DNA of 64,000 bases, taken from assembly GCA_002269645.1 (NCBI GenBank), contig NIVC01000578.1, positions 1 through 64,000 on the forward strand. The letters run 5' to 3'. The position numbers and the translations under genes were made by a program. Below the pieces are notes generated by a model. The model ran no database searches. It worked only from the letters and a program-made list of their open reading frames with translations, and was not told where the DNA came from. Position 1 is the stretch's first letter. Each line of letters starts with the position of its first letter. This stretch comes from Macrostomum lignano (taxonomy: Eukaryota). Positions 47,501-63,016 of this stretch are shown piece after piece.

Positions 47501-50500
47501 TCCTACGGCAATTGAGTTTACCTTCCTAGCTCGATCTTCCTCGCTGTAGCCCTTGCGGCTGGCCACGCCTTCAACTCCGGTCAGCTCGAACGGCACTTTC
47601 TCTCTGTTAAACGCCTTCTTTGTCATCGGGCTGATGCTGCCGTCGCGGCGCTTCCACACAACGATGCAGCGCTGCATGCGGGAGCTGATCTGCGCCTGAA
47701 AAAAAGTTTTTTCACCCGTTTCGCTTTTTAAGGTTCTGGGTTGTCTAGGAAAGGCTTTAACAACGAGCTGACCTGTTTCAGCGCCTCTGGCGAGTAGGTT
47801 TCGATAAACTTCTCCTTCTCGCGGAGCGCGATGTCTCCAGCCGGATCGTCATCACCGGCGCCGGGTTCGGAGCCGCGCCGCGGAATGCGACGGGCACCAG
47901 ATCCGCCGCCCTTGGTGCCGCGCGACTCCGGGATCAGCTTCCTGCGGCGCCGCATCATGGTCATGCTCTTGGCCAGATCCTCTGGCGAGTAGTACTCGGG
48001 GTCCGAGCTGTCTTTGAAATCGTACGAACTCAACCTAGGCAATAGTAGGGTGGTTTTGTTACACATCTGTTCAAAACCAGCACAGTAATATAAGTATTGC
48101 ACTGTTAGTAGCGCAACTCAATTTCGCAGTTGTTGTTGGCGAGCAGGTGATGGCACTTGAACGAGATTCGCACGTGACCCTTCTCGCCGCCGCTCTCCAT
48201 CTCGTTTGCCATGAGCGAGTCGTCCGAGTAGATGTCGAATTTGTAGCGAGACGCTCCAAGGATGACGGCGTTGAGGCTGCCCCAGTGCACTCCGATCCGC
48301 ATATCCACGCGCTGCTCATCCGGCAGGCCCATGCTGTCATTGAAGGCCTTCAAAATATTGAAAGATTGCCAACTCGTTTTGGGCTGCTTAAAATAATCTG
48401 TGCTGTTGCAAAAACCGTTTTGGTTGTGTCGCACCTTACCTGAATTTTTTCGCACATCTCCAGACCCATGGCCACTGAGCAGAGCACGTAGTACACCTGA
48501 CAGCAGAGATGTTTTGTCAATGTTTTGTCAATTTGTCGATGAGTCGTGTTTATTCCAAGTGAAATTTTATCGCTGACGATTTACAAATTTACGATCATTA
48601 ATTCCGAATATACTTCGTTTACTTTGTCCTAAATTCTTGGCTCTAGCATTGGCGGGAGCGAGAACTCAACGCTAATGCACTAATGACCCACACCCAGAAC
48701 GTTCTGTTACAGCCAAAGTTTTGTGACACGGACAAAACCAGCTGAGAAAAATTGCTTCGAAGATATCGAAAAACTTTTCGAGGATGCAAAATTGGATGAC
48801 GAGACTTCAGCATCATAATTTAAGCTTCTGATCACGGTAGAGGCCCAGCTAGTCGTCTGTGACATTGACGAGAAACGCAGAAGAGCTTCACGAGCATAAA
48901 AAGGATTTCAGAGCAACTGAGGTTCAGTTCCAGATCACCAACCTGCCTGAGGTGCCTGTCTAGTCGTTCTAGCCAACTAGTCCAGAAACTTTGTTCTTGT
49001 CGACATTTTCATCCACTGTTTTACTTTGGGCTCCATTCCGGTGGTGATTCAGTTGGCATCCCTTTATCGTTTTTTGATGCTAAACAAGTTGGCATAGAAC
49101 GCTTTACACAGTATGACGAAACAAATACGCGGAAAGCTCACCTGGTTCCGCTGCGACTCTTTGCTCGCAAACGCCTGGACGGTGCTCAGCCGTTTCTTCT
49201 CCGTCATGGGCACGCCGGACACGCAATAGTAGCAATCGCCCAGGGTACCGATTTTCTCAATCTGCAACCGACTGGCCGAGATGTCAAAGGCGCCATAGAT
49301 TCGATTGAGAATGTGCACCACCTCGGAGGCGCTGCGGCCCGCTGACATCATGGTGAAGTTGACGATATCGGCGAAGAGCATCGAGGCAAAGATGTACTCC
49401 TCGTGGTACGGCACGATTAAACCTGTGTTGTTTTTGCGCAACAGGCTCTGGTTGAACTTGAACTTCTCGTATGGCTCCACAACGATCTTTGGCATCACTT
49501 TGCGGACCCATTCTTTGCTGAAATAAGAACACCAATGTGGAGATATGTTAAGCCTGTAAATATAAGTGACAAAGGCTTCTAATAATTACCGAATAGAGCC
49601 TTCCTCTTCGTTCTTCTTGATGAGTGCAAAGTTCTCCACAAGGGTTCCAAAAGTGTTGTTGGTTCTGACGATGCTCACAATGCAGGCGTATAGTCCCACC
49701 ATGTTGCACAGCAGCAGCTCTACCAGGTCCACGATCAGGCTGCTACTGTAGTGGAAAGCCTTCTGCGCATCCAGCGCACGGTGGAATGCGGTGGAGTAGT
49801 ACAGGAACAAGATGCTCGCTACTATTGAGAAGAGCAGCGCCATGCGGAATCGCAGGATTCGTGACAGGTAGATGGTTAGGATCAGCGACGACTTCATGAT
49901 GCCCAAGTTCAGAAAGTTTAGCGACAAAACTGTGCAAGAAAAGCGTGTGTTGCGAAAGCTTACAATATTGGTCACTCTCGTGTCAAAGCACGATGCATTA
50001 CCGCGCGCTTATTCGGTAACAAAAAGTCAACCAGTCTACTCAATTACTCTGAGGAGGGGGATTTTTCATTAGCATTAGTATCGTGTTCCCTCATTGGAAA
50101 CTATGACTAGAATCAAACCTATTAACATTATCAAGCCTATCAAGCCTAGAATCAACATTATTATATTGCTCAATTTTTCCATTGCAATACATTCAGGCGT
50201 TGCTTCATGAGGTAAATTAAAAATCAGATGGGACCTAATTCGGCACTCACGGATGACAATGAGCGCGTACAGGCTGATAAGCACGAACGCCATGCTTCCA
50301 TGCACGGCGGCCTTTGGCAAGCAGTCCGGTAGCGACATGACATTCATGATTGACGCGGACGCAATGAACATCATGATGAAAGGCGCCGTGTTCATAGTCT
50401 GGCCGGAGGCCTCATCAAACGTGGAAATGGAGACCAGCTGGAAGATTCCGAATGCAATGATGTAGTAATAGGCCAGGTCAATGTACGCGGTGGTCAGGAC

Positions 50501-50755
50501 CTTGTCAAACTTGGTCAACTCCTGGCCAAGCGATTGGTAGACGAACTTGAACTCAAACAGGGAGTTGCTATCCTGCAGCTTGAACATGCGCCGCCAGGGC
50601 ATGCACACCCGCTGCACAACCTCCACGCAGTCGGCTTCATCGCCATCTTCTTTCTGCTTTGAGAAGCGCCGAGTGATCTGCTCGAGCAGGCGTTGCTCCT
50701 CAGGCGACGCCGACGGCGCGAAACTTTTTTGCGATTGACCGCCAACCATCGGCAA
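44536..50755 (-). CDS. Transmembrane (12-TM) class III adenylyl cyclase. Exons 50755-50251, 49929-49590, 49517-49142, 48496-48440, 48347-48118, 48034-47773, 47695-47522, 47426-47317, 47219-46723, 46634-46307, 45669-44984, 44792-44536; ~1273 aa
   Basis: C1a: ASMLFADIVNFT...TLGDCYYCVSGVP...MRIGVHWG...KFDIYSDD..MANEMESGG. C2a: DKIKSY...[39 protein letters not shown]...KGLG. Two blocks of six hydrophobic helices. All introns GT-AG with consistent phases. The 48118 donor is weak, and the 3' end might splice further at GA|GTGAGC. Confidence 0.88.
45686..46062 (-). mobile_element. tRNA-derived SINE, copy A (in adenylyl cyclase intron 10)
   Basis: Head with A-box-like TAGCCTAGTGGT and B-box-like GGCTCGATTTC; body aligns with 53936-54299; A-rich tail; 9-bp TSD AAGGTTTCA at 45677-45685 and 46063-46071. 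Confidence 0.8.
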
Positions 50756-51801
50756 CGTTTGGTACTCGGTTTGGTCTCGCCTGGCTTTTGAGTCTCTAGA
50801 AATGTATTACTATGTAGATTATCAAAAAGCTACTCAAACTCTCGTCTCTGTAAATACAAAGCTAAAGCTGCCATTTTTTTCATTGTCAAACCAATCATCA
50901 ACTGTCTATGGTGAGTTCAGCTCAACTGACGCTTGAAAGGAGTGCGTGGCGAACTTTATCGAACTTTATCGAATAAATTAAATGCGTGCATCTCGCCGAG
51001 AGCAGTGAATTAAGGTTAAATCTGAAACCCTTAAAAACATTCAGAAACAGGCACGGCATGCGTTAAATTGAAAGTGGCACATAGAGAGTAACAGTGATAC
51101 AAAAGATAAAGAGAATCTTGAAGGGGCTACTTGTCGAATGTCAAATGACATTTATAGAAAATGGTTTTCAATTTCATTTCAGAGCAGCATCTTCGCTCCC
51201 ACCACAGCCTCGCTGCAGTCGCATGCAGGTTGCCAAACGACGCAGAAAAGTTGAAGGTCTTGAGACCAAATACCTGATACACTTCATGGTCAAGCTGAGC
51301 TATTGTTACAATCTCAAATTTGCAACTCTCCATTAAGCAAATTTTGAACCGCTTATAAATGACAGATAGCCAGTAGTATTATACCATACAAAATTGCCAG
51401 CAAAACATTTGTCAGAAACAACTAATATTAACTCTTATTAAGGATAAATTTAACATTTTTCACTCCATTTTCGCTCGTCTTCACTACGCTCAACTCGCTC
51501 CGTTCATCCTCGCTTCATTTCGGTCAAAATGTGAAATTTATCCTTAATAAGAGTTAATATTATTTTTTTCCGACAAATGGTTTGATGGCAATTTTGTATG
51601 GTACCTAACACTTCCAACACTTCCAAACACTTCCAAAACTTCCAACTCTTCCAACTCTTCCATCTCTTACAACACTTCCAACACTTCCAAACACTTCTAT
51701 CTCTTCCAACACTTCCAACTCATCTAACACTTCTATTACACACTAACCCGACCGCGCCCCGCAGGGGCTTGGGGCACAAAAGATTTTTTCTGTTACTAAA
51801 A

Positions 51802-51972
51802 ATGAACCGAGTTTACAACTTTTCAGTAAGTGATACTTTTGAAACTGTTGCTAAAAATGCAGAGATAATAAAACAGCATATATTAAATGGAGTAATCGAT
51901 GAAGTTTATTTAAAATGCGACAACGGGCACGAACAAAAACTTTATCCTCTAGAGTTAGATGGAGTTATATGA
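51802..51972 (+). CDS. Short Polinton left-end ORF (56 aa), unknown function, probably truncated
   Basis: ATG lies at the inner end of the left TIR; MNRVYNFSVSD...YLKCDNGHEQKLYPLELDGVI*. Confidence 0.35.
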   Translation: MNRVYNFSVSDTFETVAKNAEIIKQHILNGVIDEVYLKCDNGHEQKLYPLELDGVI

Positions 51973-52859
51973 TTTAGAACAAGAGCCACCTCGATCCCTG
52001 CATCCGGCTCAGCGCTTCTGACTGGAGCCGCATCAAAGTGACCATGACTGATTCCTGGTCACTGCGGTTATGCAATAGGTGAGCAGTATACTCCGGGTAA
52101 GGGGCTCTCGCCTGCCAGAGTTTTCTTGCAACGCCCCACCCGACGCTGCGACGTCGATGAGGCTCACCTCGGCAACGCCTTGTCCCAGCAGCACAGGCGG
52201 ACACGTCGGACGAACCATTGGTCCACTTTTCTGCGCTGCAGGCCCCACCACGCTAACGACGGATCACCACAATGGCATACGTACCAGCAGCATCATCATC
52301 AGCACAACCATCCACTGCTGCCGCTGCCCTCGGCCTCAAGGATGCTGGTGCCTATGACCTCAACTGGCCCACAACGCCACCGGCCCGCAGCTCGATCTAT
52401 CAGCAGCATAGTGCTCACACTTTTGGACAGTCCTTGAACACCCGCCATCGAGCCAGCCAAATACTCTACATGCTTTCGATTTCTGTGCTACTAACACTTT
52501 CACATTACCAATTTAGACGCCCCAACCTGGACTTCAACTGCCGGTGACCCCAGTCGTTTTCATTGCGTTAGTGGCAAAGTAATCGCAGCCGACCCAGCCG
52601 TTTGCCACAGCAGCTGAGCTCCGACGAGCATAATACAAGAGCAACATTGTCTGGCTCTGGGGGGAGTTGTGTAGCGGACACATGTACTTTTGACAGAGTC
52701 AGCCACTGCTGCTCAAACTGTTTATGGCCCAAATAAACTCGAGCCGTAAAAGGCCCAGCCGCAGAACTTTATTAAAAGACAAGCGGTCTTCATCTCGCCG
52801 CACGCGAGCCGCTTCAATATCCATGAAACCACCATCAATTCAACTAACAAAAAATTAAT

Positions 52860-53180
52860 TTATGATCAAATTCCAAAACATGACAAATCCCCTATATTAT
52901 TTGATGATTGCATTAACGATGGCGATCAAGAATTGCAAAAAGAAATTTTTATTAGCGGTAGAGGAGATGGAATTGGAGCACTTTATCATACTCAATCATT
53001 TAGGGAATTACGAGCGTAGATTCAATTATAAAAAAGAATGCAAGTTGTTGTGTAATGTTTGATTTAGTTGGTTATGATTTACAAAATATACATAGAAGAT
53101 TTAATCCTGGAAGGGAATCAAAACTATTTAAAAGTATGTGTAAAAAATTGGGATGATAGTCAATGCAAACATATATATCA
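52860..53180 (+). pseudogene. Polinton packaging ATPase (A32/FtsK-HerA family), C-terminal remnant
   Basis: Reading across stops and frameshifts: ...SPILFDDCI (Walker B)...EIFISGRGDGIGALYHTQSFREL...KKNASCCVMFDL, matching the Polinton ATPase pattern hhhDD...F..GRH....Y..Q....IR.NA. No Walker A found. Confidence 0.7.
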
Positions 53181-53270
53181 GTCCAAGATTGTAACGGAAC
53201 AATAGAATTTTAACAGATATATTACATGAGAATGAGGAAGAGGAAACGGAATAAAATTCACTCTATAAAA

Positions 53271-54435
53271 ATGGTTAAAAACTTAGATGCTATAAAACAA
53301 TTGGTTGATAGAACAAGTTCAAGATTTGGCACAACGTTACAGTTTATAATGACAAAAACCGAACAACGGATTCAATTGCGCGATCCTTTACAACTCGATC
53401 AAAGTTTAAGTTATCAAGTTGGATTAATTTTATTTTCGGTTTTCAATATGCCACAATTAATTAATGCATCAAATAATCAATTTAGATATTCTAAAGATTC
53501 TGGAGCAAATTGGACAACATTTAGTGTTAATCCGGGAGCATATAGTTATACGGATTTGAACGCATATATCGGGGGAGAATTAACAGCTAATGGTGATTGG
53601 GTAGCAGGCACAATTGTTATAGGAGTTGATTTACCATCCGGCAGATTCACACTATCATTAGGATCTGGATATCAAGTTGATTTTAAAATTGCAAATTCAC
53701 TTAGAACCATATTAGAATTTAATTCCAGAATTGTTACCACATCAAGCACGGGCGATACCGTAGGAAACATTGAAGGCGGAGTTAATACAATTAATATAAC
53801 AACTGATATCTCAAACGGTGGCTATATAACAGACGATAACGGATTTTTGGTTCAGCGTGGAATTATATATTCAATTCCATTTCTGGCTGTTCCAATTGGA
53901 GAGAAAATGATTGTTGCACCCAAACCCCAATATATAGGAGGCCGTAGCCCAGCGGTACCGCAGCTGCTCTGGTGTGCCAGCGACCCAGGCTCGATTCCCA
54001 GTGCAGTCACATTAATTTGGGGCTGAATTGGAATCTCGGCTTGGCTTTGCTCGTGCAATTAATGGCCTTGAGAGCCAACCCCCCAAGGCGCAGTGAAGTG
54101 TACATGCCTAACGATAAAATAAAGTTAGGGCCACTGTACACTCCTGTGTGAGTGTGTGCCTGCGTACGTATCCGCGCGCTTGTATGCCTGCTCAGGGGAG
54201 TCGGGCGGAATGGGCAGTAATGCCTCTCACCGGTTGGGCCTATGTCGTTTAAAGTGCGCCAGCCAGGGCGCGCACAACCCCCTGCCTTTAAAATAAAATA
54301 AACCCCAATATATTATCCTTTAAATCAATATAATATTCAATCTATTTATATCAGAATTTTTTAGATGAAACCAAAAGATTAATAAATTTTGGTGGACAAT
54401 CAATAACAGTAATTTTACGAATAAAGCAAGTTTAA
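53271..54435 (+). pseudogene. Polinton/adintovirus minor capsid protein (penton), interrupted by a SINE
   Basis: LRDPLQLD...YQVGL...SVFNMPQLINASNNQFRYS...W...NPGAYS...VDF...SLRTILEF...INITTDISNGGY...IIYSIPF.AVPIGEKMIVAPKPQY. After the SINE and a 2-nt shift: YYPLNQ...FLDETKRLINFGGQSITVILRIKQV*, the typical penton C-terminus. Confidence 0.8.
53936..54299 (+). mobile_element. tRNA-derived SINE, copy B (inserted in the penton gene)
   Basis: A-box-like TAGCCCAGCGGT, B-box-like GGCTCGATTCC, tail TTTAAAATAAAAT; 14-bp TSD AAACCCCAATATAT at 53922-53935 and 54300-54313. Confidence 0.85.
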
Positions 54436-54654
54436 TTAGATTAAAAATGGGTTATAGAATTACTTTAAAAGAACAATCGAAAAAAGTCAAAATAGCAAAA
54501 AACAGTTATGAAATTGAATTAACAAAATTGAAACAGCTTCAAGCAGAAAAAACAAGAAAGGAGCTATTAAAACAACCGACTAATAAACTAACAAAAACAA
54601 AAAGTTTTGCAATAACTTGAATGACTTTGAGTTGGAATGCTTTTAAACAAAGAT

Positions 54655-55109
54655 ATGGAGATGACACAAACAAATAATATAGAACTAACAAATTGGGCGC
54701 GGCAATTAAAAATAAAACCATTCCGATGTGTTATGCGTGATGAAATAAAAAATTTACTACAATATGGATCATTCATTGTTAATATTGAAACAACCAAAGA
54801 AAATGGTGTACATTGGTCAGCAGTTTATTCAAAACCAAAACTTGTTTACTTTTTTTATTCTTATGCATTACCTCCATTGCAGGAAAAAAAGATAAATTTA
54901 ATTATACCAAAAATCGATTATGTGGAGATTATCATGAACAATTTCAAACCTTTGATAAAAAATATTGTGGACAAGCAGCTTTGTATTTTTGTATCGAATT
55001 AACAACTCGGCCAATGGCCGCGACTCATTTTAATTTAATAAAAATAGACATTAAAAATGATATTTTCTGGAACCCCCTCATGGAACGGGACAACACGCAC
55101 AGGTGGTAA
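54655..55109 (+). pseudogene. Adenain-type cysteine (maturation) protease, frameshifted
   Basis: TNNIELTNWARQLKIKPFRCVMRDEI...FIVNIETTKENGVHWSAVY...YFFYSYALPP, then in another frame QFQTFDKKYCGQAALYF. Catalytic His (GVHW) and Cys (YCG) are present; the usual FDS Asp reads FYS. Confidence 0.8.
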
Positions 55110-55540
55110 TGGTGATTCAGGTGGAATTAGTGTTACATTTGGAGACAATAGGTATATTAATGAAGATGAAGGATATAAAGAAAACTGAAATAGATACTAA
55201 ATTAAATTTAAAACGGAATATTTCAAATTCATTTAATCAAACTGAAATAGATAATTCAATAAATTTAAAACGGAATATATTAGATTCATATAGTCAAGCT
55301 GAAGTTAATTCTGTAGTTAATGCAAAAAGAGATATAAGCGATTGCTATTCTCGAACCGATTCTGATTCGCGTTATGTTCAAACCACAGCAACTGGACCCT
55401 TGGATATGAGTAACAATCAAATTATAAATGTTGCAATTACAACGAATAACTCCGTAGTTGATAAGAACTATGTTGATAATGAAATTGGTAGTCGTAGTTG
55501 CAATATAAATATGAATAACTCTTCAATTGTTGTTGGATAA
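55057..55540 (+). pseudogene. Fibre/tail-like repeat protein remnant of the Polinton
   Basis: MIFSGTP...SVTFGDNRYINEDEG (frameshift) KTEIDTKLNLKR-type ~22-aa repeats and LDMSNNQIINVA...VVDKNYVD, a motif common in fibre-like proteins. Confidence 0.5.
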
Positions 55541-55559
55541 ATTATTTCTTGAATTTCAT

Positions 55560-56945
55560 TAATATAGTTTGCTTCTTGCTTTGTCTTTAAGTATTGCTTC
55601 ATTTTGTCTTCAACTCTAACAAAATCTTTAAACCAACATTTTAATGTTAAACTTGAACATGTAAGAGTATCAAACAATGTCATTCCACCAATTGAATATG
55701 CAATTTCATTATACTTATGAATACACGCACATAGTGAGATATCAAATTGTAAATACTCATACGCTCGTACCATTCGTCAATCCGTTCTAAATAATCGTTC
55801 TCACTCATATCATGAACCATTGATGTCTTACACAAATCTTCTCTAATTTTCATAGATGTACAAAAAATTTTAAACTCATTGATGCCTGTTGAAACGAACA
55901 AAGCATTATAATTGTTTGTTTTGAATCTTTGTGATTCTTTTTTATCTTTATTTATAAAGGCTAATACGTCTTTTGTTGTATAGTCATTTACAAAAGTTAT
56001 TGATAAGATTCCTCTTGGTGTTTTAAGAATTTTACATGGTTTAAAATTGCAAAATAGTGGTATATATGAATCGAATCTGGACGAGTTGTGCGCTATCAAA
56101 ACAATATTTTTTGGCATAATTGAAAGAAGATGTTTAAACATTTTTCTGTTTAGCTCGTATTATCGTTTAAATATGTTTCAAAATCAAATATAACTACATC
56201 CGCTTTAGTTGGATTTGTTGATGTGTTAAAGGTTTTATCTCACTAATGTTTTTGCTCGTTGGTTCTTTGAATACTATTTTATAATTGTCTTTTATCCGTT
56301 CTAATCTGATTCCTGTCTGTTTATTGGATATTAAACAATAATGACCAATGTGATAATCGTTCGAGTGATAATAATTTAACAATAGCCAATCGTGTATAAT
56401 TTTTCTTTGGGGCTTTGGTTCTATTCCTCGATTCGTTGGATTATATAAAGCCATATTCAAATTAAATTATTCGTTGAATTTTCCTATTCTTGAATTTGTC
56501 ATTAAACCTCTTTGGGTTCTTGAATCATTCAACCAAGCTCCATATGCTTCTTTGGGTGGTGCGCTATCACCATAAATAAATTGAACATACTTATAGAAAT
56601 AGTTTTTATCAGATGGTATATAACAATAATCGTCTTGGTACTCTTCTATTTCACATATTACGTTAGTGCCCATACCTTGCTTTGATCTTTCATGTTTCAG
56701 TGTAATTATATTTGGTGTCATTTTGAGTCTTCCAGAAAACACATTAGATTCATATCATAGTTTTCAACTAGATGTTTAATCCAAGCTTGAAACTGATTTA
56801 TATCATAAAATGATACCAAGTATTGATTAATTTCTTCGCGATCATCTCCACTATTAAGATAAAAGTATTGGACTCTTGCATTAGTTATTTCAACACTATA
56901 TCCATTTAAAATTTGTGTTTCTATAAAATCTAATACATTCTGCAT
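55560..56945 (-). pseudogene. Protein-primed family B DNA polymerase (pPolB): N-terminal and 3'-5' exonuclease part only, multiply frameshifted
   Basis: Fragments YCYIPSDKNYF, GHYCLI, Exo II IVLIAHNSSRFDSY and Exo III-like YLQFDISL...TCSSLT. No polymerase-domain motifs (GGR, DxxSLYP, K...N..YG) follow. Confidence 0.75.
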
Positions 56946-57009
56946 TGGCTCAAATCGATAGACTCTGATAAACTCTTCAAGCGATATTTCGGGTTGTGGA
57001 TTCCTTGGT

Positions 57010-57264
57010 TTACGACGTGGCTTTTTTGATTTTTTCTAACTCTGCTATTCTTGCTTCATATCGTGCGTTTTCTATTAACCTTCTCATTTCATATTCTGCC
57101 CTAATATTTGATGCTAATTCTTCTGTTTGTTGTTGTTGTCTTTCTCTTTCAAAGTTTCTTTGGCGCATTTCAATTTGCTCAATTTGTCTTTGTAATCGAT
57201 TGAGCTGTGCGCGCTCGTTGGCAAGAAGTTGTCGAATCTGATTTGGGGTTAATATTTGTTCCAT
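57010..57264 (-). CDS. Small coiled-coil Polinton ORF (84 aa), unknown function
   Basis: Open ATG-to-stop frame, Q/E/R-rich heptads, between pPolB and the pX-like gene. Confidence 0.5.
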   Translation of the reverse strand: MEQILTPNQIRQLLANERAQLNRLQRQIEQIEMRQRNFERERQQQQTEELASNIRAEYEMRRLIENARYEARIAELEKIKKATS

Positions 57265-57346
57265 TTTATAGCAAAGAATTTATAGAATGTTTGATTGAAT
57301 AGTTTTTTAATTTGGGTTTTTGTGGCCTAGACCCCCCACTAGTCGC

Positions 57347-58225
57347 CTACTTGAGTTCCGCTTTTGGTAACAGTAATCCTTTGCCTGAAACGGTTCCTTG
57401 TAGAAAAATACCAGAACCTGCTTTTGGTCTCATTTCGAGATATAATCCGCTTCCATCATGTTTTTCAATTATGTTAAAATCTTTTCCTAATTTATTAAAA
57501 ATCTTTTGAACTGCTGGCCTAAAGTTGGCTCCAACATTATCAAAAAATCCTTTAGCTTTTTCGCCGGTTTTTTCTAAAGTTTGACCAAATTCATGCAATT
57601 TATCTGCTACAATTCCGTCACCATGAGTTGTGCCTTTTAGAATTAGCCCAGTGCCGTGGGTTGTTCCTTGTAACATTAAACCTTTTCCAGCTGCTAGTCT
57701 GGCTTCTGCATTTCTTTTTTGTGCCGCTGTTGCCGAACTGCTATTAATGGCATCTATAAGTTTTGTTTAAATTGAGCGTCCTGTGTTATTTGCTGTCTTT
57801 GGAATTCAACCTCTCGTTTAGCTTTTTCATCTGCAGCTTTTTTCTCATTTACTGCTTTTGCAATTCCAGCTGCTCCGCCTGCTAATCCACCAGCTGCTTC
57901 GATTCCTGCAAAAATTATTGGTAGCAAAGTTGCAAGTGGTAATATGCCCCCTTGTTTTGCTTTTAATTCTCCTAGTTGTTTTCTATTATCATGAATTCTT
58001 TTGGCTGCTAATGTAGTTGCTCCTGCTGCTCCAAGTCCTAAAAGAATTGGTAGAATGGGCAATAATCCACCATCCTTTTTTGTGTGTCTCTATTAAAAAT
58101 TTCACATCCGATTCTGTTAATCGATAAGTTTTATTGTTATGTTTAAATGAAATTGGTCTTCCTTCTTGTGCATATTTTGCAGCTAGTTTAAATGTATCCA
58201 TATCATAATCTAATATTTTTCCCAA
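57347..58225 (-). pseudogene. Polinton virion core/membrane-active protein with pX-like GG-x-LP-x-L motifs and G-x-G-L repeats, split by two frameshifts
   Basis: Three ORF pieces join across shifts near 58070 and 57755: ...KFLIETHK/KDGGLLPILPILLGLGAAG...GGILPLATLLPIIFAGIEAAGGLAGGAAGIAKAVNEKK.../...AGKGLMLQG..HGTGLIL...GSGLYL...GSGIFL...GKGLLL. Confidence 0.6.
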
Positions 58226-58368
58226 CCTATCTAATCTTTTTAGGATGGTGTGACTAGAATTATTCCAATTTAAGCAGGCTACTATTTCAGCTAAGAAATA
58301 TATTCTATTTTCATCGTGATCTCCTCCCCAATAGTTTGGTGATAAAAACTGAGTCCATTTTTATATGA

Positions 58369-58779
58369 CTAAAACTTCTTTAATCCTTTTCCGCCTTTAA
58401 TCGAGTTTAACACTTTATTAAAATCTTGGATGTCTTTATTGCTCAGAGGGGTGCTTTTAGTGGGTGTTTCAGTAGGCTGTGCGGCTTGGGCTGTTTCTTG
58501 TGCTAGCTTTAAATCTTTCATTGCTTTTATTTGAGAAATGGTGTCGTTAAAATCATTCATTTTTTTGAGCTCCTCTGCTGCCTTAGCTGCTTCTATTCCA
58601 CCTTTAACCGCATTGGTTACTGAGCCGGCTGCTGATCCCGCTTGTGCTATTAGTGGCATATTATCTTTAACTAAATTTGCTGCCGTACCTTTCATATCAA
58701 AAAGGCCTTCACCTCTATATTCTACTGGGTTTCCAATTTGTATTTCATTCAGATTGTATGCGTGTGTTATGCGTGTCAT
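58369..58779 (-). CDS. Polinton right-end ORF (136 aa), probable core/structural protein
   Basis: Intact ORF starting at the inner end of the right TIR; RGEGLFD motif near the N-terminus and GGKGL at the C-terminus. Confidence 0.55.
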   Translation of the reverse strand: MTRITHAYNLNEIQIGNPVEYRGEGLFDMKGTAANLVKDNMPLIAQAGSAAGSVTNAVKGGIEAAKAAEELKKMNDFNDTISQIKAMKDLKLAQETAQAAQPTETPTKSTPLSNKDIQDFNKVLNSIKGGKGLKKF

Positions 58780-60335
58780 TTTTGTCTATTTTTAGTAACA
58801 GATTAGAGATTTAGTATATTTAGAAAAAAGCTTGTGTGCCCCAAGCCCCTGCGGGGCGCGGTCGGGTTAGTGTGTAATAGAAGTGTTAGATGAGTTGGAA
58901 GTGTTGGAAGAGATAGAAGTGTTTGGAAGTGTTGGAAGCGTTAGAAGTGTTAGGTACCATACAAAATTGCCAGCAAACCATTTGTCAGAAACAACTAATA
59001 TTAACTCTTATTAAGGATAAATTTCACATTTTGACCGAAATGAAGCGAGGATGAACGGAGCGAGTTGAGCGTAGTGAAGACGAGCGAAAATGGAGTGAAA
59101 AATGTGAAATTTATCCTTAATAAGAGTTAATATTAGTTGTTTCTGACAAATGGTTTGCTGGCAATTTTGTATGGTATAATACTACTATAGCCTTTTCAGA
59201 TCTCGTGCATTCGCGTACAAAACGATGACATGAAAATAATCGCTAAAAAGTCGTTGCAAACAACTTTCTAGTGACTCTAGCGACTCTTGTGACTTTTTAA
59301 AAACTCGAACGCATCTAATGCGATGAGTGGGCGACTGTTGCGTCACAAGCGCGATAGTTATAGAATTGTAAGAGTCACGAAAGAGTCATCCAGGATTCGT
59401 TATGTTGGCGCTCAACTTCGCTAAAGATGTGACTCTGACTCATCAAGCAATGCAAATGTGCTTCAAACACAACTCAGTGACTCTTGCTACAGCGACTCTA
59501 CCACACGTAGGACTCTACGGTCTCAGATTCTACGACTCTATGGTCCCAAAGTTGCTATACCGTCGCACCAGAGTCACTTGCCTCGCCCCAAAGTCGTTTC
59601 AGAGAGTCGCAGATAATAAAAGGTTTCGACTCTTGGACGACTCTGTGGCGACCCAAGTGACTCTGGAACGCTTTTTGGTCTAAGTGTCGTTTTCATCGGG
59701 AGTTCCCAGCAAGTCGCAACCGACGGCAAAAATGCCTGCCTCGTAGCCTAGGCCAGACTGACTCCTGCTCTGCTCGCGGCAATTTCTATGCGGCAGGCAA
59801 AGAATCTACGAGCCAGTTTTTCATAGTGAATAAGAAGCAACAAAGCAAGGAATCGCGGGCATTTCGCCATCGGAGTCAATTGATAAGATTTTGGCTTTTC
59901 ATTAATATTTTCGAACATTCGGATCAAGTACAATTCACTGCTTAGTAATTATGCAGCTCTTGTGCAAGCATTGGTGACAACAAATATTTTAGCCCTTTGC
60001 TAAGCTGTCAATACAGCAGTTAATTTGAAAAAAAACCAGGTATAAAAATAGACCCTTGCGCCGCCTTGTACAGCCTTTGTGCTTAATCTGTAAGGGCATA
60101 GCTGCACTGCAGCAGAGGAGAGAGAAGAGAGAAGAAAGGGCGGCGGGCAGCAGTGTACACTGCATAGCATACAAGAGTGTGACGGCTTTTCATTGTGCGT
60201 TGCCTATAGCAACCAATTGGGGGAAGGGCGGAAATTCAAATTACAGAGCTGCGAGGGCAATTTTGATACAATCTATGCAGTTGCTAAACCTTGAGTCAGC
60301 TAAATTTTCTACGATATTCTTCAGGATCCGATAAA

Positions 60336-63016
60336 ATGATGCAGGCCAGCTTCACTATTGGCGTGGTAAGTCGGCTTGGTTGCAGATTTGAGCCAGAGGC
60401 GCGGCCAGGTAGGGACAAGGGGGCCACCGGTGCTAAAACCCCCAGTGCTAAAGCCCCCAGTGCTAAAGCCTCCAGTGCTAAAGCCCCCAGTGCTAAAGCC
60501 TCTAGTGCTAAAGCCTCCGGTACTAAAGCCCCCGGTGCTCAAGCCCCCCGTGCTAAAGCCTCCAGTGCTAAAGCCTCCGGTACTAAAGCCCCCCGTGCTA
60601 AAGCCCCCGGTGCTAAAGCCTCCGGTGCTAAAGCCTCCGGTGCTAAAGCCCCCAGTGCTAAAGCCTCCAATGCTAAAGCCTCCGGTTTCTAAAGCCCCCA
60701 GTGCTAAAGCCCCAGGTACCAAAGCCCCAGGTACCAAAGCTCCAGGTACCAAAGCCCAAGGTACCAAAGCTCCAGGTACCAAAGCCCCAGGTACCAAAAC
60801 CCCAGGTACCAAAGCCCCAGGTACCAAAGCCCCAGGTACCAAAGCCCCAGGTACCAAAGCCCCAGGTACCAAAGCCCCAGGTACCAAAGCTCCAGGTACC
60901 AAAGCTCCAGGTACCAAAGCCCCAGGTACCAAAGCTCCAGGTACCAAAGCCCCAGGTACCAAAGCCCCTGGTGCTAAAGCGGCACCATTAAATGAAGTGG
61001 GCACCTTAAGAGGCCGCCTCCAAGTCAGAAATACAGGCTACCTAATGGTTTAAATTTCAATGCACCCCGCTTCCCTTCGAGTTCAAACCATTCTTTTTAT
61101 TTTTTGTTACTCTTTGCATTTCAGCCGTCTGCCCCAAGTTCGAGACCGTTCCCGCAGCATCTGACGCCCCATCTAGCACAGATGGGAGTCCCGATGGAAC
61201 AGGCTATGGGTGAGTGTGTGAAATCATTGCTTAGATAAATACTACAGAGTCTGCATCCCGAAGTTCTCGTAGACGATTACCCTAGAAAATATCAGAATAT
61301 ATTTGCTGTACCACAAAACTTTATAAGCCCTTGTAGTTCTTTGTTCTGTAATCATACTTGCATGAAAACCAATTTGAAGATCGGCAATTAGCGCGTGCGA
61401 CTCTGGCTTGATTCTGGCTTGATTCTGGCTTGATTCTGGCTGATTCTGGCTTGATTCTGGCTTGATTCTGGCTTGATTCTGGTTCTGGCTTGATTCTGAT
61501 TCTGGCTTGATTCTGGCTTGATTCTGGTTCTGGCTTGATTCTGATTCTGGCTTGATTCTGGCTTGATTCTGATTCTGGCTTGATTCTGATTCTGGCTTGA
61601 TTCTGGCTTGATTCTGGCTGATTCTGGCTTGATTCTGGCTTGATTCTGGCTTGATTCTGGTTCTGGCTTGATTCTGATTCTGGCTTGATTCTGGCTTGAT
61701 TCTGGTTCTGGCTTGATTCTGATTCTGGCTTGATTCTGGCTTGATTCTGATTCTGGCTTGATTCTGATTCTGGCTTGATTCTGGCTTGATTCTGACTTGA
61801 TTCTGGCTTGATTCTGGCTTGATTCTGGCTTGATTCTGGCTTGATTCTGGCTTGATTCTGGCTTGATTCTTGGATCTCGTGCAGTTCTCGCCCATGAGGC
61901 ACCCCAAAGGCACGGAGAGTGTGCGGCTTGATGATCCTGATGATAGAAATTAGGACCACCGTGTACTTGTGTGAGCATATCCCTGTGTACTCGCACGCAT
62001 CCGTTGTGCTCAAGGGTCAGATGAATGGGCGTGACTCACTGCTCGCCTCCCCGCTGGCTACAGCTCAACTACAGTAGCTGAATTATGCTGATTTTGGCCG
62101 TAATGGGCGGTGCGCTCTCGCTTTGGGTAGCTAAGCCGTCAAAAAGACGCCCGATTTACCCGCGCACTACTGAAAACAACTTGCTCATCTCCTTTGCTTC
62201 CAGGCTACTGGAACACCTTCAACCACTTCGACTTGGACGGCTCCGGCACCATCAATGTGCAGGAGATGGTGACCGGCTTGCAGCTCATGGGACAGTGCCC
62301 CACGCCCAGCGATGTGCAGAACATGATGATGCAGGCCGATCAGAGTGAGTCTGCCTACTGCGATGGGTCGTCAAGCTTTTGTTCGTGTCTTTTGCTTTCT
62401 TGCGCTTCTCGTCATACCATTTAGACTGAGACTGGATTTAAATTAGATTAATCATGATTAAAGCCTTGATTGAAATGCTTTCAGAGTAGCAATGATAATC
62501 GAGTATTAATCATCAGTGCCTGCTGACACGAGTAAATTAAGTCCTCTGCAGGTGTCACTGGGGTATTGTCAGTTTATTGCTTATTCGCCGTTTCCCACAG
62601 ACCACGACGGTCAGGTGGATTTCCTGGAGTACGTAAGGGTGACTCACGCGCGAGTGCAGCCACCGCAGGCGGTGCAGAATGACCTCATGACGGCCTTCCG
62701 CGTGTTCGACAGGGACGGCAGCGGCTACCTGGACGCGAATGAGCTGCGAGCGGTGCTCTGCCAGCGCGGCATGAAGGAGAGCGACTTTAACCATGTGATG
62801 TCCCTGGTGGACCTGGACCGCGACGGCCGCATCAACTACAACGAGTTCGCCGGGCTGATGACTCGGCCGCTGGAGACAATGATGAAGCAGCAGCACGGCA
62901 AGGGGCACAAAGATGGCAAGCATCACAAGGACAAGAAGGACAAGAAGCACAAGAAGCACAAGAAGCACGGCAGCGGCAGCGGCAGCGGCAGCGGCAGCGG
63001 CAGCGACAGCGACTGA
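60336..63016 (+). CDS. Calmodulin-like protein with four EF-hands and a Lys/His-rich plus (SG)n tail. Exons 60336-60365, 61125-61209, 62204-62344, 62601-63016; ~223 aa
   Basis: EF loops DLDGSGTINVQE, DQNHDGQVDFLE (across a splice junction), DRDGSGYLDANE and DLDRDGRINYNE; phases 0/1/1 are consistent. The first exon is less certain; ATG 61182 is an alternative start. Confidence 0.85.
60425..60980. repeat. 15-bp minisatellite (GGTGCTAAAGCCCCC grading into GGTACCAAAGCCCCA), ~36 copies
   Basis: Lies in intron 1 of the calmodulin-like gene. Confidence 0.9.
61402..61870. repeat. 11-bp minisatellite (GATTCTGGCTT) with 6/7-bp variant units
   Basis: Lies in intron 2 of the calmodulin-like gene. Confidence 0.95.

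Follow-up and report, generated by a model that had tools for sequence, protein, structure and literature searches.

The window analysed here is the whole stretch of 64,000 nucleotides at positions 1 to 64,000 of contig NIVC01000578.1 (assembly GCA_002269645.1) of the flatworm Macrostomum lignano, and it contains, at 51372-59186, the relic of a Polinton, a virus-like mobile element. Our analysis supports that this relic, which is non-autonomous, derives by deletion from a young Polinton family with parents of 17-19 kb, and taken by itself it is an ordinary decayed copy. We consider it probable, at roughly 70%, that it represents a deleted copy, immobile on its own, from a family in which the full-length members have a group I intron, likely self-splicing by prediction and probably spread by a neighbouring endonuclease. 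The sequence case for these introns is strong, and we infer their activity.

An earlier note on this DNA, made from the letters alone, had suggested that a longer parent may exist elsewhere in the genome, and copies with integrase and double-jelly-roll (DJR) capsid genes were indeed found in the same assembly. The search with the terminal inverted repeat (TIR) of the element gave 48 matches from 40 of the 104 candidates, which were scored; among the copies bounded by TIRs, five measure 17.1-18.9 kb, three reach 24.7-31.9 kb with nested insertions and two are small derivatives. Exact 6-bp duplications surround 9 of the 10 bounded copies and all 290 of 290 TIR bases are identical in 5 of the 9 informative ones (C570 was left out of this count), and the parent family is therefore young. 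Capsid matches are full length and free of internal stops in 48 of the 87 scored; as the assembly holds haplotype or paralogue duplicates, the independent insertions are fewer than these matches. The note had also supposed that the family may be undescribed in this host lineage, which is doubtful: flatworm Polintons have been catalogued in bulk, with 748 pPolB1 sequences from 8 of 73 flatworm genomes in the accessible part of the supplement to PMC10748475, and the parent family may be among them. A polymerase search returned 1,234 relatives, and database proteins labelled Macrostomum lignano cluster with a polymerase 95% identical to that of the parent family. Three copies deserve separate mention: a full-length one (C2140:94-17640) sits, with a 6-bp duplication, in the capsid gene of a second family member; a TIR-bounded one with identical TIRs (C506:477342-494412) has unlike flanking hexamers and is possibly a recombinant between two insertions; and a 4.1-kb derivative with identical TIRs (C393:168308-172388, locus L020) keeps the integrase frame and only the 3' part of the intron.

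The open reading frames (ORFs) of the parents match Polinton families, so that the reading of the element as a Polinton stood up to the profile check. Besides the 6-bp duplication and long TIRs with AG...CT simple-repeat ends, the parents encode a family B DNA polymerase of the protein-primed kind (pPolB; ORF of 1,205 aa, DNA_pol_B_2, PF03175, E 1.7e-18), an A32/FtsK-type ATPase (Pox_A32, PF04665, 28.2 bits, above the cut-off) and, at family level, an rve integrase (PF00665, E 1.7e-7, 31.9 bits against a cut-off of 32.6) and a DJR major capsid protein. For the latter, the Foldseek matches of a model with pLDDT 52 are best with iridovirus, Sputnik and mavirus capsids (E 4e-12 to 8e-12), and its Atlas neighbours are viral, some of them DJR. 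The penton model (pLDDT 43) has adenovirus and mavirus pentons in the top Foldseek rows at weak E-values (0.06-1), and structural alignment gave Z 7.1 with a root-mean-square deviation of 3.2 over 112 aligned residues to a PBCV-1 chain, and Z 5.0 to the mavirus penton. A profile of 23 protease members matches the adenovirus protease weakly (E 0.006) with invariant His, Asp, Gln and Cys, and PF00770 was matched, at weak scores, in 4 of the 23; searching the penton and protease sequences against PDB alone was uninformative. An OTU domain was seen only as the database label of one member of the polymerase cluster.

The parent integrase frame runs upstream, with no start codon, into a parvovirus-type phospholipase A2 (PLA2) domain. 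Further upstream a short exon ends in the first half of the calcium-loop motif, and after it come about 303 nt in which group I motifs are found. The idea that the frame, which has no ATG, starts by a spliced leader or by spliceosomal splicing was dropped once this exon and the group I intron had been found. The intron site is one codon boundary, between the Gly and Pro codons of the motif (G/PGT), and occurs in three allelic states: intron A, intron B and none. With an uninterrupted database relative (P0153) as query, 113 parent-family matches were scored, of which 3 are uninterrupted, 106 start at the splice position and 4 start later; 37 intron-A, 9 intron-B and 3 uninterrupted loci out of those matches were inspected individually. 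The splice sites are confirmed by intron-free alleles that read through G/PGT as predicted, in 3 parent-family copies, in 4 copies of the sister family described below and in the proteins P0153 and P0156. The PLA2-integrase fusion itself is widespread, both domains being present in 66 of the 120 homologues listed. As a side observation, the PLA2-integrase frames of P0154, P0160, P0164, P0186, P0194 and P0230 begin at or just before the splice position, which suggests introns at this position in other assemblies.

Rfam model RF00028 recognized intron A above its cut-off in 4 of 5 parent loci (55.6-65.8 bits) and in 1 further locus. The same search led to a sister Polinton family, with TIRs, capsid, ATPase, penton and protease, that carries the same intron at the same site and scored above the cut-off in 28 of 28 own-genome matches. 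In total the host assembly holds 221 intron candidates, of which 40 were scored, at 95-100%. These introns display a P3-P4-P6-P7 core with the guanosine-binding G-C pair, and a P1 in which the 5' splice site follows a U paired to a G of the internal guide. Across nine intron sequences (two of them environmental), 59 pairs were drawn by hand. In 19 of them both partners vary, and 95.8% of cells are paired, a level reached by 0 of 500 shuffles and compared with 37-47% in slid controls; as the same related sequences served to draw the structure, the shuffle counts are not probabilities. In P7 both partners vary in 4 of 6 pairs, pairing stands at 98%, and four different versions are fully Watson-Crick. 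Intron B has a core and a guide unlike those of intron A, and P2 and P5abc-like parts are common to both; P3, P4 and P7 pairing is present in 8 of 9 intron-B copies, and the 5' guide sequence of intron B tracks the synonymous state of the exon. Of 19 matching public datasets, 14 were presumed to be RNA, with none recorded as such. No exon-exon joint was present among the contigs of four runs on one A-ending locus, and one run-X1 contig reads unspliced through the two splice sites; since the contigs represent multi-copy sequence and the type of the runs is not given, they say nothing for or against splicing. Of the related copies examined, most have a group I intron in the PLA2-integrase gene, and it is predicted to be self-splicing. 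In both families we also noted GC-rich mini-hairpins with 3-nt loops, single or paired, that look mobile; they lie in intron loops (L133, L152, L153, L293) and likewise upstream of exon 1 in C13 and C1197.

The slot directly upstream of exon 1 is occupied by a variable gene: at least three different genes are found there, an Eco47II-like PD-(D/E)XK endonuclease in 7 of the copies seen and HNH-like types in most others. In the sister family a PD-(D/E)XK-like gene was present in 20 of 20 loci examined and lies inside the intron, after the guide sequence, in 10 of 10 loci checked; this intron-borne endonuclease is 59% identical to the free-standing ORF of the parent family, and four intron-free sister alleles are without the endonuclease gene. 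As in collaborative homing, the endonuclease gene is found in a peripheral loop or adjacent to the intron, and cognate intron-free alleles exist (3 in the parent family, 4 in the sister family). In an environmental Polinton-like contig of IMG/VR, too, this site is occupied by an intron, and a GIY-YIG gene lies directly upstream of it; a metagenome contig holds the 3' half of an intron in that position. Among 81 environmental loci, 46 were without the PLA2 part, 31 were uninterrupted and 4 were flagged; of these last, L193 and L216 are one contig in two collections, L201 holds the intron 3' half and one is an uninterrupted variant. An Rfam scan of 20 of the 81 environmental loci found no intron. 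Regarding the families themselves, the sister loci L133-L160 include near-identical copies and a copy with mismatched flanks (C67:348665-366913). A third abundant Polinton family (C716:300871-316681, L163-L192; 426 candidates, 30 read) has an uninterrupted PLA2 divergent from a separate integrase, and one copy shows the 6-bp target duplication CCCACC.

The parent family consists of Polintons with group I introns in a protein gene of an animal nucleus, where competing introns coexist with alleles that have none, and an endonuclease is known from each of the two positions. We propose that, when copies meet in one nucleus, the endonuclease would cut intron-free alleles at the conserved motif, that repair would copy the intron across, and that the intron would then shield its carrier from cutting. 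Splicing by the ribozyme would remove the intron from the mRNA, so that the PLA2-integrase precursor would still be made, and this precursor would likely be packaged and processed by the adenain-like protease.

Several observations weigh against this proposal, to which the limit put above on the shuffle counts belongs. An intron-A copy whose core has indels (C581), the two environmental loci and 3 of 3 intron-B loci escaped Rfam, and those calls therefore depend on manual reading of the helices. The endonuclease labels are weak, the Eco47II family being matched at E 1.4e-5, just below the cut-off, with Atlas 0.90-0.94, and HNH by motif only. Moreover, an HNH-like gene is still upstream in all three intron-free alleles of the parent family, so the enzyme is either non-cutting there or not a homing enzyme. 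This last point, together with the three or more genes that share the slot, suits an explanation that we judge somewhat unlikely, in which the introns splice and the upstream endonucleases are unrelated cargo, a defence against competing or giant viruses held in a recombination-prone slot; the introns would then be inherited vertically and the intron-encoded state would have arisen once by chance. The PD-(D/E)XK gene stands beside an intron in all 7 copies seen, which are copies not randomly sampled and agree with cargo too. However, two different introns at one site and their near fixation (3 intron-free among 113 scored matches) fit homing better, as do the joint loss of intron and gene in the intron-free sister alleles and the same layout with a GIY-YIG gene in a distant contig.

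Further points on the same side concern splicing. The 3' end of intron A was called in 35 copies and is A in 26 and the canonical G in 9, although the query was a G copy; elsewhere the terminal base is G, in 8 of 8 complete intron-B copies and 10 of 10 sister loci. The A-ending intron A would be a group I-derived variant that departs from the canonical terminal G, and no precedent for a terminal A was found in the literature searched, including the accessible parts of PMC3984707 and PMC8393795. In addition, an in-frame ATG 58 codons into exon 2 opens a 325-aa integrase frame that could yield integrase without splicing. On these grounds the introns could be real by descent and mostly dead passengers, with A-ending copies that do not splice, integrase supplied from the internal ATG or from other copies, and multiplication only along with the element. 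We regard this as unlikely. In its favor, the C393 derivative keeps only the intron 3' part between identical TIRs, and the A state never falls on one side of a branch in 200 bootstrap trees (from a short alignment in which recombination is likely), a scatter that fits repeated change or recombination. On the other hand, core pairing, guide sequence and both PLA2 exons are constrained in A-ending copies, and a dead terminal base is not expected to be the majority state across several sub-lineages. The ratio of nonsynonymous to synonymous polymorphism (pN/pS) is 0.35 in A-ending and 0.29 in G-ending copies for exon 1, and 0.09 and 0.05 respectively for the PLA2 part of exon 2, all computed from in-register, stop-free frames only and possibly predating the A and G states; these low values fit continued use of a spliced protein and are not proof of it.

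A farther-reaching version of the homing proposal, that a bilaterian nuclear genome holds hundreds of active group I ribozymes homing among endogenous Polintons, with two rival introns at one site, one endonuclease lineage beside and inside the intron, and splicing by the commonest variant despite its terminal A in place of the near-universal G, is in our opinion possible, if still doubtful as a whole. With this family, group I introns would be present in a nuclear protein gene of a flatworm kept in the laboratory, brought there by a virus-like element. Three questions could then be addressed directly in a single animal that can be cultured: does group I splicing operate in RNA polymerase II transcripts of animals, do mobile introns originate when an endonuclease next to them is captured, and is homing between Polinton copies the sign of a virus-like phase outside the chromosomes?

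The window copy has the following features.

51366..51371, forward strand: left target-site duplication (TSD) ATAGCC, an exact 6-bp copy with its exact partner on the right side.
51372..51791, forward strand: left TIR, 420 bp, with the AGTAGT end, a hairpin, a 9-bp minisatellite and a small GC stem with a GNA loop.
51382..51603, no strand assigned: hairpin in the left TIR, 78-bp arms 51382-51459 and 51526-51603, 92% complementary, 66-nt spacer.
51802..51985, forward strand: 5' part of the first small ORF, at the left edge of a deletion of about 5 kb.
51986..52816, forward strand: 3' part of an element (1.1 kb) with long terminal repeats (LTRs) that resembles terminal-repeat retrotransposons in miniature (TRIM); 147-bp LTR at 52670-52816, TG...CA; the 5' part went with the left deletion.
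52822..53178, forward strand: C-terminal half of the A32-like packaging ATPase, found by tblastn with ORFs of full-length copies; stops and frame breaks.
53271..54432, forward strand: penton-like (minor capsid) gene, found by tblastn; split by the following repeat, with a frame break near its end and weak fold support.
53936..54299, forward strand: tRNA-headed insertion like a short interspersed nuclear element (SINE), with an A-rich tail; 14-bp target duplication at 53922-53935 and 54300-54313.
54465..54617, forward strand: remnant of a small 69-aa ORF of unknown function, found by tblastn.
54621..55000, forward strand: adenain-like cysteine protease gene with frame breaks; family profile against adenovirus protease E 0.006.
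55057..55519, forward strand: N-terminal part of a fibre-like gene with 19-codon repeats, the label being drawn from position and repeats.
55513..57264, reverse strand: N-terminal half of pPolB with frame breaks; its core is gone through a second deletion at about 55514-55528.
57350..58321, reverse strand: broken pX-like core protein gene, found by tblastn and Pfam.
58372..58779, reverse strand: 138-codon open frame for a small core-like protein of unknown function, found by tblastn.
58822..59186, reverse strand: right TIR, 365 bp, holding a perfect 78-bp hairpin (58955-59032 and 59099-59176).
59187..59192, forward strand: right TSD ATAGCC, an exact 6-bp copy.

Most of what the earlier note had read here was borne out. 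The AGTAGT...ACTACT termini and the exact ATAGCC duplication are present at 51366-59192, and the TIRs, put at about 400 bp, measure 420 and 365 bp; left and right are identical at 337 of 345 aligned positions, with one length difference of 55 bp within the 9-bp minisatellite. The interior had been called AT-rich, which is true overall (GC 0.36) and not uniformly, as it contains two nested repeats of the host that are rich in GC (51986-52816 and 53936-54299). The announced remnants of pPolB, ATPase, penton, protease, fibre-like and pX-like genes were all recovered by tblastn with the ORFs of full-length copies; the fold support of the penton is weak, the fibre-like label is positional and its full-length parent ORF has no Pfam match. 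By themselves the window fragments reach weak Pfam scores (DNA_pol_B_2 E 0.015, Adeno_PX E 0.0007).

The copy shares 75-84% DNA identity with its full-length relatives and, as the note had proposed, is a 7.8-kb deletion derivative, shaped by two large deletions. The left one, of about 5 kb, took the PLA2-integrase gene together with the intron in it, the endonuclease gene, an unknown ORF and the major capsid gene, along with the 5' half of the ATPase; in agreement, an Rfam scan of the window found no intron, and tblastn with the natural ORFs of full-length copies found no trace of integrase or major capsid in the element. The middle one, of 4.5-5.8 kb, removed the 3' part of the fibre-like gene, small ORFs and the polymerase core, and a further 156 bp were lost inside pPolB. 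The only intact frame is the 138-codon one, all other genes having stops or frame breaks. Autonomous members have integrase, capsid and a whole polymerase in 15-20 kb, and with those genes lost the window copy would be unable to move autonomously. The left deletion stops inside the TRIM-like element, whose insertion therefore preceded it. The history observed comprises an insertion with a 6-bp duplication, later nesting of TRIM and SINE, two large deletions and, in a second haplotype, a 242-bp solo hairpin. As to the nested repeats, the TRIM-like non-coding family (1.1 kb, 147-bp LTRs) shows a 4-bp TSD in other copies and has 43 genome candidates (L038-L042); the SINE-like repeat, with an A/B-box read by eye, is also nested in C1412 and near C52 at 92-93% identity.

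The TIR hairpins fold far more stably than 200 shuffles (z = -14.9). In 14 copies the 5' arm fits its own 3' arm better than those of other copies (0.86 against 0.75; 0 of 20,000 permutations), a test that is inflated by related copies and leaves out the C1075 TIR, which has a repeat expansion. Between copies the arms are 79% and the spacer 94% conserved, and paired changes are visible by eye. That the hairpin is specific to the window subfamily was rejected, as the alignment shows a looser form in all copies. A 20-nt bulge interrupts the 3' arm of most copies. It is missing from the window copy and from C1680, whose arm sequences differ from each other, and this may reflect recurrent template switching at an end that is single-stranded. 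Two side observations belong here: C986:337080-337750 (L026) holds two partial TIR hairpins in tandem with a 20-bp tandem repeat between them, adjoining an element of the third family, and at window 51755-51768 and the inner TIR ends of relatives there is a short GC stem with a GNA triloop, whose pairing is kept despite changed stems.

Palindromes inside inverted repeats form direct repeats as well, here 7,573 bp apart. On contig C2173 the flanks of the window element (98.7% over 7.7 kb, 99.4-99.8% on the right) surround a 242-bp perfect palindrome, a length equal to 7,815 - 7,573; its spacer has the orientation of that in the right TIR. This solo hairpin would have arisen by recombination between the 78-bp direct repeats of the hairpin TIRs. 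A point against it is that the solo haplotype is known from the assembly alone. We consider it quite unlikely that the C2173 element is an independent insertion of the kind of miniature inverted-repeat transposable elements (MITEs) or an assembly artefact of the hairpin. Its perfect 88-bp palindrome, two private substitutions on both arms and a left target copy with one mismatch would agree with such an origin; against it are a site identical to the base, a length that matches the element minus the direct-repeat spacing, the spacer orientation, and the lack of any further such solo among the TIR matches inspected. If recombination is the source, hairpin TIRs offer a possible route from Polintons to MITE-like solo ends. 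No report of solo Polinton ends was found in the literature searched.

A right-flank search of the assembly found the locus of the element on three more contigs. C2749 and C1200 carry both flanks joined over a single ATAGC, the hexamer minus one base, and their left flanks are 97% identical to the window over about 4 kb. The earlier note had expected an empty site with a single ATAGCC; these contigs belong to the same assembly and represent paralogues or alleles rather than an orthologue from another species, and they leave the reading as an inserted element unrefuted. About 570 bp separate the insertion from a large exon that belongs to a spliced adenylate/guanylate cyclase gene; this host gene covers about 48100-50806 on the reverse strand, an exon of an EF-hand protein follows at 62510-63013 on the forward strand, and two tRNA matches of equal Rfam score, about 3 kb apart, are found at 41023-41094 and 43992-44063 on the reverse strand. 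An origin of the elements in a symbiont or contaminant instead of the animal nucleus, to which relatives in environmental contigs and the group I introns known in protist Polinton-like viruses (accessible part of PMC12220804) might point, is largely refuted by the insertion with empty sites beside a spliced cyclase gene, the nested host repeats, the bounded copies on long contigs, of which 9 of 10 have different flanks and an exact 6-bp duplication, and the matching datasets of one organism label across six studies.

Recombination between terminal direct repeats of LTR elements leaves one end within the original TSD, and the solo hairpin resembles such solo LTRs in its single end left with the original TSD. 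It differs in that the direct repeats come from palindromes inside inverted repeats and that the remnant is MITE-like.

Among known elements, the parent family is closest to Polintons/Mavericks, that is, adintoviruses (Amphintovirales, Eupolintoviridae, NCBI taxonomy; PMC8502044), being alike in the 6-bp TSD, AG...CT ends, long TIRs, PF03175 pPolB, rve integrase, A32-like ATPase, adenain-like protease, DJR capsid, pX-like gene and a size of 17-19 kb; it differs by the group I introns that split a gene and by the co-evolving hairpin in its TIRs. In Alpha adintoviruses (Mayetiola class) PLA2 is fused to pX (PLA2X), according to the accessible part of PMC8502044, whereas in the parent family, which has a PF03175-type PolB, PLA2 is fused to the integrase and the pX-like gene is separate, with no PLA2X. 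In the parts available to us, reviews describe group I introns as absent from animals except in non-bilaterian mitochondria and, from a meeting report, shark ribosomal DNA spacers, and nuclear group I introns as restricted to rRNA genes (PMC10964413, PMC8393795). No report of a group I intron in an animal Polinton was found in the literature searched, which was mostly without subscription papers and had Repbase and Dfam outside its scope; likewise, the accessible supplement of PMC8502044 (about 4 million characters searched) holds no flatworm or intron terms. There is about one chance in four that the finding is already in print.

The nearest intron precedents are found in protist Polinton-like viruses, for which the accessible part of PMC12220804 describes RF00028 introns of about 300-380 nt in a protein gene, short and unannotated, near the capsid gene in an endogenous virus, and reports them only from one cryptophyte, one rhizarian and one green alga. 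Here, by comparison, the host is an animal, the interrupted gene is the PLA2-integrase gene, and intron-free, rival-intron and endonuclease-bearing alleles coexist. Finally, in phage collaborative homing a free-standing endonuclease gene adjoins a group I intron that lacks an ORF (available parts of PMC3984707 and PMC11296320), and the proposed end state is a composite with the endonuclease gene in a peripheral intron loop (PMC3984707, same part). The likeness lies in the layout, with an endonuclease beside or inside the intron, cleavage here being predicted only; the difference is that the parent and sister families would bring this arrangement into a eukaryotic nuclear setting, where one endonuclease lineage is found in both states within one genome.

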